Origin: a virus
Lineage: Duplodnaviria; Heunggongvirae; Uroviricota; Caudoviricetes
IMG/VR virus record: IMGVR_UViG_2740892212_000011
DNA length: 8,797 nucleotides
Strand: one strand, 5' to 3'
Shown in pieces: positions 6,934-7,585 of the stretch. The translations under genes and the position numbers were made by a program. Below the pieces are notes generated by a model that was given only the letters and a program-made list of their open reading frames with translations, was not told where the DNA came from and searched no databases. How positions within the stretch are numbered: the stretch's first letter is position 1; each line of letters opens with the position of its first letter.

Positions 6934-7155
6934 TTCTTGACTTTTTTGTTTACTGTTTATTAAAAACACTTCTGCATGGTGAATCCCCCTGTGCGGAGGG
7001 GCGACTGGTGTAGGTAGCATTTATTATGTTATAGGCAAGCCGACGCGGGTTCAGTGACACCGGCTGAATTCACCGGGAGGCACCCGGCACCATGCTTTGC
7101 CACAAAAGTGTTATTTCTGTTTTTCTCAAACTATCATCGTTATCCCTTTATTTCC

Positions 7156-7182
7156 GGCTGCGCATGGCGCGGCCTTTTTTTT
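7156..7182 (+). terminator. Strong rho-independent terminator in the intergenic region
   Basis: 8-bp GC-rich stem GGCTGCGC (7156-7163) / GCGCGGCC (7167-7174) with one G:U pair, then eight T (7175-7182). Confidence 0.7.
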
Positions 7183-7354
7183 ACGACCAGCCACTGGCAG
7201 ATGTTCATCCTGCGATTTGATTCCGGCTTTTTAACTCTGTTCCTGTACACGGGAGAAATTCGATGTCGATTAATCGTTATGATATTGGTTACACGAAGTA
7301 CCACGTATGGTGTTGAGATAAAAAGCCTGGTGCCAGAGGTAAATGCAGCAGCAT

Positions 7355-7406
7355 AATAAAAAAAGAGCCAGCGCAGAAGAGAACGGGTAAAAGAGTCTGC
7401 GCTGGC
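7355..7406 (-). terminator. Rho-independent terminator for a minus-strand transcript
   Basis: Perfect 11-bp stem GCCAGCGCAGA (7367-7377) / TCTGCGCTGGC (7396-7406); on the minus strand it is followed by UCUUUUUUU (complement of the A7 run 7358-7364). Confidence 0.6.
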
Positions 7407-7456
7407 GTGGGGATATTCCCCGTGGAGAAATGATATGTAACACATATCGGGAACCT

Positions 7457-7485
7457 TTCTATATAAACATTATCATTATTGTCAA
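7457..7485 (-). promoter_or_regulatory. Candidate minus-strand promoter
   Basis: Consensus TTGACA on the minus strand (complement of 7480-7485) followed at 16 bp by TATAGA; alternative extended -10 TGtTTATAT. Points toward the minus-strand terminator about 90 nt away. Confidence 0.3.
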
Positions 7486-7585
7486 TCATAACAGTCAGGT
7501 ATTATGACGTTTATGCCTCAGGGACATCAGGAATTAACTGGTGGCTTTTTATTGTTGTCAGCTTCCGGATAACGGGAGACGGGGT

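Follow-up and report, generated by a model that had tools for sequence, protein, structure and literature searches.

What is encoded in the roughly 650 bp that separate the cargo genes from the holin gene of a lambdoid prophage? The question was raised by IMG/VR record IMGVR_UViG_2740892212_000011, a stretch of 8,797 nt analysed here over its whole length (the window), for which a preliminary description had proposed small RNAs (sRNAs) on both strands ending at convergent terminators. The window is the late region of a lambdoid prophage and was 100% identical to part of the chromosome of Escherichia coli EC12. The gene order in the RefSeq annotation of EC12 is DUF968, RusA, antiterminator Q, DNA methyltransferase, three tRNAs, TerB-family, DUF3927, the gap, class II (phage 21-type) holin, DUF1327 and lysozyme; TerB, DUF3927 and the holin were confirmed by Pfam. 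The gap is bounded by the end of DUF3927 at 6933 and the start of the holin gene at 7586. We are confident that it constitutes a "moron-site" module, i.e. two independently transcribed, convergent sRNA genes of the Hfq type that flank a remnant of the esterase gene nanS-p. The proposal of sRNAs on both strands was borne out by an Rfam match to STnc100, by ends of the PasD1/2 type and by near identity with the sRNA EcOnc32. Family membership, orthology, structures with their conservation and the deletion scar come from our own analysis; expression, Hfq binding, RNA sizes and RNA-RNA chimeras were reported in the literature on orthologues. The features of the module are as follows.

6937..6966 (+): putative promoter of the plus-strand sRNA (sequence reading, alignment of five related loci)
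6974..7182 (+): sRNA gene of the STnc100/PasD family, predicted length ~209 nt (Rfam, PasD1 identity, fold)
7156..7182 (+): intrinsic terminator of the plus-strand sRNA (terminator scan; identical to the PasD1 terminator)
7185..7356 (+): deletion scar of a nanS-p (SASA/DUF1737) esterase gene (local alignments to esterase ends)
7358..7462 (-): EcOnc32 orthologue, an Esr41-like sRNA (identity to the Sakai cross-linking peak, Northern probe, fold, variants)
7458..7498 (-): promoter region of the minus-strand sRNA (scan for P2, alignment with esr41 for P1, variants)

The terminator scan returned 3 sites compared to 1.2 ± 1.3 in shuffled sequences, and the consensus promoter scan 3 compared to 2.4 ± 1.9, neither of which was significant. 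Because these counts are within the shuffled expectation, the case rests on homology and structure.

An Rfam covariance scan of the region, which the preliminary description had suggested as a check, matched STnc100 (RF02076) to positions 6948-7128 on the plus strand with 116.8 bits (gathering score 47, E 9.5e-26) over model positions 1-206. The fit was poor at the 3' hairpin of this model. The first 13 and the last 27 nt of the plus-strand RNA were identical to PasD1, while the central domain is of the STnc100 type. PasD1 and PasD2 are RNAs of 173 and 172 nt from enteropathogenic E. coli (EPEC) E2348/69, the stability of which depends on Hfq and which were validated by Northern blot and by RNA interaction by ligation and sequencing (RIL-seq). 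They start with GCAUGGUGAAUCC and end at the same terminator as that in the window; the ends of the plus-strand RNA in the window were set according to the PasD1/2 coordinates. Similarity over the whole length of PasD (~172 nt) was absent, only nt 1-13 and 147-173 of PasD1 matching the window. The PasD loci scored below the STnc100 gathering score, unlike the window. A common ancestor of the PasD and STnc100 families was argued for in a 2026 preprint on the Pas RNAs. Modules are exchanged within the plus-strand family, in this case with an STnc100 core joined to a PasD promoter and terminator, and such shuffling is a likely route to new target specificities.

Relatives of the STnc100 type are documented at the RNA level. 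The model matched a Shiga toxin (Stx) 2a phage with 153.8 bits directly after stx2B. The copy 3' of stx2B is EcOnc27 of Sakai Sp5, or sRNA103 of EDL933, an experimentally mapped Hfq-binding RNA; the length of EcOnc27 is ~235/247 nt. EDL933 transcribes 11 STnc100 copies, one of which (STnc100_4) was confirmed by Northern blot, and orthologues of the STnc100 family were also detected by reverse transcription quantitative PCR. The location is that of an STnc100 RNA as well: the plus-strand RNA of the window has DUF3927/TerB on one side and the class II holin on the other.

The signals at both ends of the plus-strand RNA had been pointed out before. The scan detected the terminator at 7156-7182: GGCTGCGCATGGCGCGGCC (7156-7174), which forms an 8-bp G+C-rich stem with a 3-nt loop, is followed by T8 (7175-7182). 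The -35 box TTGACT is present at 6937-6942. A weak -10 box had been placed near 6958-6963, and TATTAA is indeed found there; yet the conserved element is instead TTAAAAA at 6960-6966, which was invariant with an aligned -35 box across five related loci. The -10-like TAAAAA (6961-6966) overlaps TATTAA, and the resulting arrangement TTGACT-18-TAAAAA ends ~7 nt 5' of the PasD-type 5' end G6974. The consensus scan did not call this promoter because its -10 box lacks the final T. Judged from the sequence, a non-canonical promoter is plausible. In the predicted fold a 5' domain is closed by an 8-bp helix (6974-6981 with 7088-7095), followed by an A/U-rich single strand (~7096-7155) and the terminator.

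The RNA on the opposite strand corresponds to EcOnc32 of enterohaemorrhagic E. coli (EHEC) Sakai. EcOnc32 is listed in Table S2 of Tree et al. 2014 in prophage Sp3 at 901574-901662 (-) with 64.7 million reads in Hfq cross-linking and analysis of cDNA (CRAC) and a Northern band of ~112 nt; its read count is the second highest among the table rows listed. The Sakai CRAC peak aligned to positions 7352-7441 (-) of the window with 88 of 89 bases identical plus one extra T in the window, and 34 of the 35 bases of the published Northern probe were present at 7413-7447. The context agreed too, i.e. the unit aligned with Sp3-type loci of O157 and with prophage PP4 of E2348/69, which have an EcOnc13/PasD-type partner and a class II holin downstream.

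The RNA consists of hairpin 1 (7432-7448), the single-stranded AUUUCUCCAC (7422-7431), hairpin 2 (7409-7421) and a terminator (7367-7406), with the 3' end at a U7 run (7358-7364). Hairpin 2 was found as described, reading GGGGA-AUA-UCCCC on the RNA. The terminator likewise has the perfect 11-bp stem (7396-7406 with 7367-7377) and U7 tail that had been noted, with a loop of 18 nt. It was missed by the terminator scan because the loop limit of the scan was 8 nt, and it was recovered by RNA folding. The fold of the entire RNA had a z of -5.69, with none of 200 shuffles as good.

Two promoters may serve this RNA. P1 is composed of TTGACA (7485-7480), a 16-nt spacer and TATAGA (7463-7458), whereas P2, which was called by the scan, comprises CTGACT (7498-7493), an 18-nt spacer and GATAAT (7474-7469). 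The TTGACA of P1, already recognised in the preliminary description, was invariant in every variant type and in register with the -35 box of esr41. The -10 boxes of the variant types read TATAAA for P1 and TATCAT or TATAAT for P2. Initiation at P1 would yield ~91-94 nt (5' end ~7448-7451) and initiation at P2 ~105 nt (5' end ~7462), the latter being nearer to the published band.

Conservation of the hairpins in related prophages had been named as a second check. Divergent EcOnc32 copies occur in LZSFT34, OkiPb01708, a Stx2i prophage and IMG/VR contigs. They kept the single-stranded (C)AUUUCUCCAC and retained the helices by G-U and compensatory changes, GGGG/CCCC having become GAGGA/UCCUC and the inner terminator stem GCAGA/UCUGC having become GUA/UAC. 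Over five sequences 91% of the cells in the three helices were paired, compared to 30-54% with slid partners.

Between the two terminators lies the scar of an esterase gene. Positions 7185-7262 correspond to the 5' untranslated region (UTR) with the Shine-Dalgarno sequence GGGAGA, 7263-7287 to the first 8 codons of nanS-p, and 7288-7356 to the last 22 codons and TAA in another frame. Alignments to esterase 5' ends (phage 434 and E2348/69 PP2) stopped at 7287, after the first 25 nt of the gene, and those to esterase 3' ends (E2348/69 PP5 and PP2, Sakai Sp4) began at 7288 and covered its last 66 nt, stop codon included. The translations agreed with the esterase, MSI(N/K)(R/H)YD at the start and ...YGVEI(K/E)SLV...AA* at the end. 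The 17-codon open reading frame (ORF) MSINRYDIGYTKYHVWC at 7263-7316 is thus an out-of-frame fusion of the start and the end of the esterase. Because the 5' homology ends at 7287 and the 3' homology starts at 7288 in a different frame, this ORF is the product of an internal nanS-p deletion of ~1.8 kb.

For prophages Sp3, 4, 5, 9, 10, 11, 15 and 17, Tree et al. 2014 reported sRNA genes that face each other at the "moron" site 3' of PR', where they lie between the moron coding sequence and the next phage ORF. Of 5426 complete E. coli genomes, 603 contained the EcOnc32 unit; it also occurred in one of 50,697 phage genomes (phage Evi) and, in a motif scan, in 71 IMG/VR contigs. A 5' motif of STnc100/PasD was located 250-450 nt away on the opposite strand in 63 of 74 motif-bearing sequences (73 loci and this window), and therefore the convergent pair is a conserved module. 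The Stx2i prophage of E. coli CFIAFB20190172 (our locus L014, 1201-1276) carried the 3' half of an EcOnc32-type RNA, i.e. the seed, hairpin 2 and the terminator with G-U changes, ~340 nt 3' of the gene for the stx2i B subunit, with an unrelated holin further downstream. Thus the EcOnc32 module also travels with Shiga toxin cargo. In the window the sRNA pair was kept though the esterase was deleted, which argues that the RNAs themselves are under selection.

A relaxed Rfam scan connected the minus-strand unit to Esr41 (RF02676), with 28 bits and E 0.0009-0.004 over model positions 1-74, the full model. At a gathering score of 102 bits the unit is not a member of that family by the Rfam criterion. 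Yet the Sakai esr41 locus aligned end to end, promoter included, with the window unit and its variants; ATTGACAA was invariant and CAUUU(U)CUCCA.GGGG...CCC..CGCC.GC conserved. In the read table of RNase E cross-linking, ligation and sequencing of hybrids (CLASH), Esr41 contains AUUUUCUCCAUGGGGUAUUCCCUCCGCCGGC, which is near-identical to AUUUCUCCACGGGGAAUAUCCCCACGCCAGC of EcOnc32. From these alignments EcOnc32 appears to be a distant paralogue of Esr41. In the literature on these RNAs we did not find such a relationship, promoter included, stated; the 2026 Pas preprint noted Esr41 model hits near PasD and nothing beyond that.

Esr41, which is EcOnc14, is an EHEC regulator of iron uptake, colicin sensitivity and motility and represses chuA, cirA and bfr by direct pairing, as verified with compensatory mutations. 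For EcOnc32, RNase E-CLASH yielded a chimera of its seed with the ribosome-binding site of entC (4 reads, -20.5 kcal/mol, false discovery rate 5e-6) and a second one with ECs1655, a small ORF of prophage Sp8 (2 reads). The entC partner site GUGGAGGAUGAU is located directly 5' of the AUG, and the identity of the gene was confirmed. EcOnc32 is perfectly complementary to the ribosome-binding site of ECs1655 over 11 nt. Both chimeras hence involve AUCAUUUCUCCAC and the ribosome-binding site of the partner. In passing we observed that the coordinates in the tables of Tree 2014 and Waters 2017 are those of NC_002695.2 for Sp3 and entC, with an offset of ~+150 nt for SpLE1 (Esr41) and Sp8 (ECs1655); therefore coordinate look-ups need checking against the sequence.

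We infer the exact start sites in the window and the regulatory outcome as follows. The plus-strand RNA would start near G6974 from the weak sigma-70-like TTGACT-18-TAAAAA and stop at 7156-7182 after ~209 nt. Its predicted anatomy, a multi-hairpin 5' domain, an A/U-rich single strand and a U8-tailed terminator, would be typical of an Hfq-dependent base-pairing RNA. The EcOnc32 orthologue of ~91-105 nt would be transcribed from the TTGACA and/or the GATAAT promoter and fold into two small hairpins and a U7-tailed terminator, with the anti-Shine-Dalgarno sequence AUCAUUUCUCCAC exposed between the hairpins. The most likely targets of this seed are ribosome-binding sites of the GGAG type on mRNAs encoded in trans, the translation of which would be blocked by the pairing, as in the case of Esr41. 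Translational repression through the seed is the most likely mode of action because of the Hfq-type anatomy, the chimeras at ribosome-binding sites and the precedent of Esr41. Uninduced lysogens produce orthologues of both RNAs. In the lytic cycle both terminators would be passed by Q-modified polymerase coming from PR'. As a tentative extension, EcOnc32 may be a functional prophage-borne paralogue of Esr41 that represses entC and other iron-uptake genes via AUCAUUUCUCCAC; we consider this possible rather than probable.

Next to the pair lies one further element, which we treated as separate.

7518..7585 (+): holin leader with a weak terminator-like hairpin (7525-7543) and T-run, 5' of the holin Shine-Dalgarno sequence (terminator scan)

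By itself, this leader preceded class II holin genes in over 2300 E. coli genomes, with ~93% identity and regardless of the sequence further upstream. Its hairpin could be an insulator terminator that shields the holin from read-through in the lysogen, or a structure of the holin leader.

Several points weigh against the view of two independent regulatory sRNAs. All RNA-level evidence was obtained with the EHEC and EPEC orthologues and not with this strain. The plus-strand RNA as a whole folded no better than shuffles (z = -1.0), and its structure is supported only for the 5' domain, by the covariance model. Because PasD2 was classed as a 3'-UTR-type RNA by its discoverers, the plus-strand RNA may in part derive from termination or processing of the TerB/DUF3927 transcript instead of its own promoter. 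The promoters of both strands have non-canonical -10 boxes without the final T, the plus-strand one not being called by the scan. The 5' end of EcOnc32 is ambiguous, with 91-105 nt predicted compared to ~112 nt on the Northern blot. Covariation in the minus-strand RNA is modest: with five sequences, 12 of 500 shuffles reached the observed percentage of paired cells and 50 of 500 the observed two-sided changes. Finally, the candidate targets of EcOnc32 are backed by few CLASH chimeras, of 4 and 2 reads.

With these points in mind we weighed four other explanations. The hairpins might merely be transcription stops or insulators and the short RNAs by-products without a regulatory role. Here the plus-strand terminator would end the TerB/DUF3927 transcript and, together with the hairpin at 7525-7543, keep read-through in the lysogen from the holin. 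That the plus-strand terminator could be the 3' end of the TerB operon had been raised in the preliminary description and stays compatible with the data, as it is the first terminator 3' of the cargo genes and PasD2 is of the 3'-UTR type; the additional terminator-like hairpin in the widely conserved holin leader and the weak promoter boxes point the same way. However, the minus-strand terminator has nothing but the sRNA itself upstream to terminate, and insulation would leave unexplained the structured 5' domain recognised by the Rfam covariance model, the fact that the orthologues crosslink to Hfq at very high levels and yield discrete Northern bands, and the retention of seed and helices across variant types. 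Insulation and sRNA function can also coexist. We judge a purely insulating role quite improbable. It is likewise unlikely that EcOnc32 acts mainly in cis, as an antisense RNA to the late PR' transcript that delays or dampens expression of the lysis genes by pairing or by polymerase collision. The gene is encoded opposite the late operon, 124-228 nt before the holin start, and therefore its RNA is perfectly complementary to the late read-through transcript; PasA and PasC genes occupy the same position and orientation beside holin genes. Against this, the apparent paralogue Esr41 acts in trans from SpLE1, where no holin is nearby, and the published chimeras are with trans targets. The holin 5' UTR had been proposed as a target, yet the minus-strand RNA was not notably complementary to the translation-initiation region of the holin: a crude RNAduplex scan, a weak method in that it takes no account of intramolecular structure, gave an equal or better score for 11% of windows.

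The other two explanations invoke translation. RefSeq places a minus-strand "hypothetical protein" over both sRNA genes (JTC67_RS00870, 7149-7443), which has 132 amino acids (aa) when intact (Sakai ECs_0817/WP_012578864.1). It is annotated in Sakai, E2348/69 PP4 and O157 C1-057, and as a frameshifted pseudogene by PGAP in EC12. But the frame is broken in EC12, OkiPb01708 and E2348/69 PP2 although the window DNA is 94.3% identical, in the aligned part, to loci with the intact ORF; the protein has no Pfam match past the cut-off and no PHROG match; and the ORF begins inside one sRNA, crosses the terminator of that same sRNA and ends antisense to the other. We hold a functional protein to be very improbable and regard the RefSeq entry as probably a spurious call that hides two non-coding RNA genes. 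The absence of a convincing protein gene, asserted in the preliminary description, needs qualification insofar as the gap does hold mechanical ORFs of 100 aa (7054-7356, +) and 101 aa (7140-7445, -). No Pfam match of either exceeds the curated cut-off; the 101-aa ORF has no PHROG match, and the 100-aa ORF has two marginal C-terminal PHROG matches of ~20 residues (E 0.0035 and 0.0071). As candidate protein genes these two and the 132-aa ECs_0817 were rejected, given nothing but sub-cut-off Pfam (Sid-5) or marginal short PHROG matches. The 17-codon ORF had been read as a possible leader peptide for a downstream attenuator. It exists as described, with a good Shine-Dalgarno sequence and ATG between two hairpins, but these signals and the first 8 codons are the start of nanS-p and the remainder is the out-of-frame esterase 3' end. 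No conservation of the peptide sequence was seen in loci with a complete esterase gene, and the peptide has no terminator to act on, as the one that follows belongs to the opposite strand. The leader-peptide reading is scarcely credible. We thus favor the view that the gap is a module of two convergent sRNA genes around an esterase scar.

Elsewhere in the window we noted a match to the Rfam sok antitoxin RNA at 877-1026 (+), with 104.6 bits at a gathering score of 59, which points to a toxin-antitoxin locus of the hok/sok type in the early region and is overlapped by an ORF at 967-1179. Two terminator-like sites (4339-4358 and 4670-4687, both +) are found 3' of antiterminator Q (stop 4258). 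The former is located ~80 nt downstream of the Q stop, where the PR'-tR' unit is expected, which in Stx phages is the source of the sRNA StxS. The three tRNA genes at 5933-6176 (+), between the methyltransferase and TerB, are Met/Ile2-type CAT, Arg TCG and Arg TCT; the trio matches ileZ-argN-argO, found upstream of stx in Stx2 phages. In the lysis cassette a 98-aa ORF (8049-8345, -) lies between DUF1327 and lysozyme in the opposite orientation and matches phrog_25324 over its full length (E 7e-61). The holin begins with M-Y-Q-M (7586-7597, +), i.e. two in-frame starts three codons apart, which presumably resembles the dual-start holin/antiholin arrangement of phage 21-type holins.

The locus matters mainly for annotation, which here becomes two non-coding RNA genes and an esterase pseudogene fragment instead of a frameshifted "hypothetical protein" in RefSeq. 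EcOnc32 is catalogued but has neither a name of its own nor a dedicated study. It is among the most heavily Hfq-crosslinked unannotated RNAs of EHEC and resembles the iron and colicin regulator Esr41. If its proposed role in iron uptake were true, a modulator of host iron homeostasis, delivered by phages and always packaged in a convergent pair with an STnc100/PasD RNA, would be present in ~11% of complete E. coli genomes, mostly of the EHEC/EPEC type. The entC chimera offers a cheap and concrete experimental test.

How does the module compare with known phage-borne sRNAs? HnrS (EcOnc10-12) was rejected as a counterpart: it is a 66-nt RNA located elsewhere in Sakai (Sp9, Sp10, Sp12), and its CLASH read fragments AAUAAUCUUCUACCCAAUCAG are unlike this locus, the comparison having been made by fragments. 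The anti-sRNAs AsxR, AgvB and EcOnc03 have the same architectural role, being convergent with STnc100-type RNAs in Sp5, Sp9, Sp10 and Sp17, but they are 51-60 nt long compared to ~100 nt for the minus-strand RNA of the window and have no sequence relation to it. Their ~42-nt 3' region GUAUCUCAUGC...GCCCGAACCC was absent from both strands of the window, and neither AsxR (RF02703) nor AgvB (RF02702) gave an Rfam match at E <= 10 in 6850-7650.

PasA and PasC of EPEC, which are EcOnc51 and EcOnc52 in EHEC, occupy the same slot and orientation as the minus-strand unit, from the 3' end of nanS-p to the holin and antisense to the late operon, and share its TTGACA -35 box. EcOnc52 and PasC have the 3' arm of the terminator and the U-run in common with the window and abut the esterase stop codon, as the window terminator abuts the stop of the remnant. 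The unit was nevertheless rejected as a member of this group: the RNA bodies have no relationship in sequence, an nhmmer profile built from PasA, PasC and EcOnc51 gave E = 2 and 4 on the window, and in a BLAST of PasA/PasC against the window only a 15-16-nt terminator arm was matched. As a separate observation, the esterase prophages E2348/69 PP2 (our locus L006, 3760-4000) and Sakai Sp4 (L012, 600-700) have two minus-strand units in tandem in the interval from nanS-p to the holin, one of the EcOnc52 type abutting the esterase stop and then PasA/EcOnc51, each with its own TTGACA and GCCAGCG...CGCTGGC terminator. The "minor 236-nt PasA" species covers both units.

Esr41 shares with EcOnc32 the single-stranded AUUU(U)CUCCA(C/U)GG, a GGGG...CCC hairpin and a GCC(A/G)GC terminator with U-run. 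The 5' hairpin of EcOnc32 is different and its terminator loop has 18 nt instead of ~7 nt. The esr41 gene is located in the SpLE1 island, that of EcOnc32 in a lambdoid late region. The substantial chimera of EcOnc32 is with entC, a gene of the iron regulon, to which the validated Esr41 targets chuA, cirA and bfr may be compared.

On the plus strand, STnc100/EcOnc27/sRNA103 has the same place in the prophage (3' of cargo or moron genes in the late operon) and the same 5' hairpin domain as the window RNA; it is multi-copy, transcribed and Hfq-bound in EHEC. In contrast to the copy of Stx2 phages, the 3' third and the terminator of the window RNA are of the PasD type, the cargo is TerB/DUF3927 instead of stx, and no partner of the AsxR/AgvB type lies 3' of it. 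PasD1/PasD2 correspond to EcOnc13 of Sakai Sp3, and their promoter region, first 13 nt and 27-nt terminator are identical to those of the window. Their neighbours are also like those of the window, with DUF3927 upstream and a nanS-p start or scar downstream, and in Sp3 and PP4 PasD is the convergent partner of EcOnc32. Compared to PasD, the window RNA has a central 5' domain of the STnc100 type that is ~35 nt longer, and a different A/U-rich stretch 5' of the terminator; therefore its targets may differ.

EcOnc32 of Sakai Sp3 is the same gene in another prophage, with flanks, orientation and neighbours shared with the window. The differences are a tail that is one U longer in the window and a partner sRNA with an STnc100-type core rather than a PasD-type one. 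The feature is thus already known, both RNAs being orthologues or family members of catalogued RNAs in a layout described by Tree et al. 2014. To this the present locus adds the esterase deletion scar, the chimera of an STnc100 core with PasD ends, and the apparent relationship between Esr41 and EcOnc32 with entC as a candidate target.

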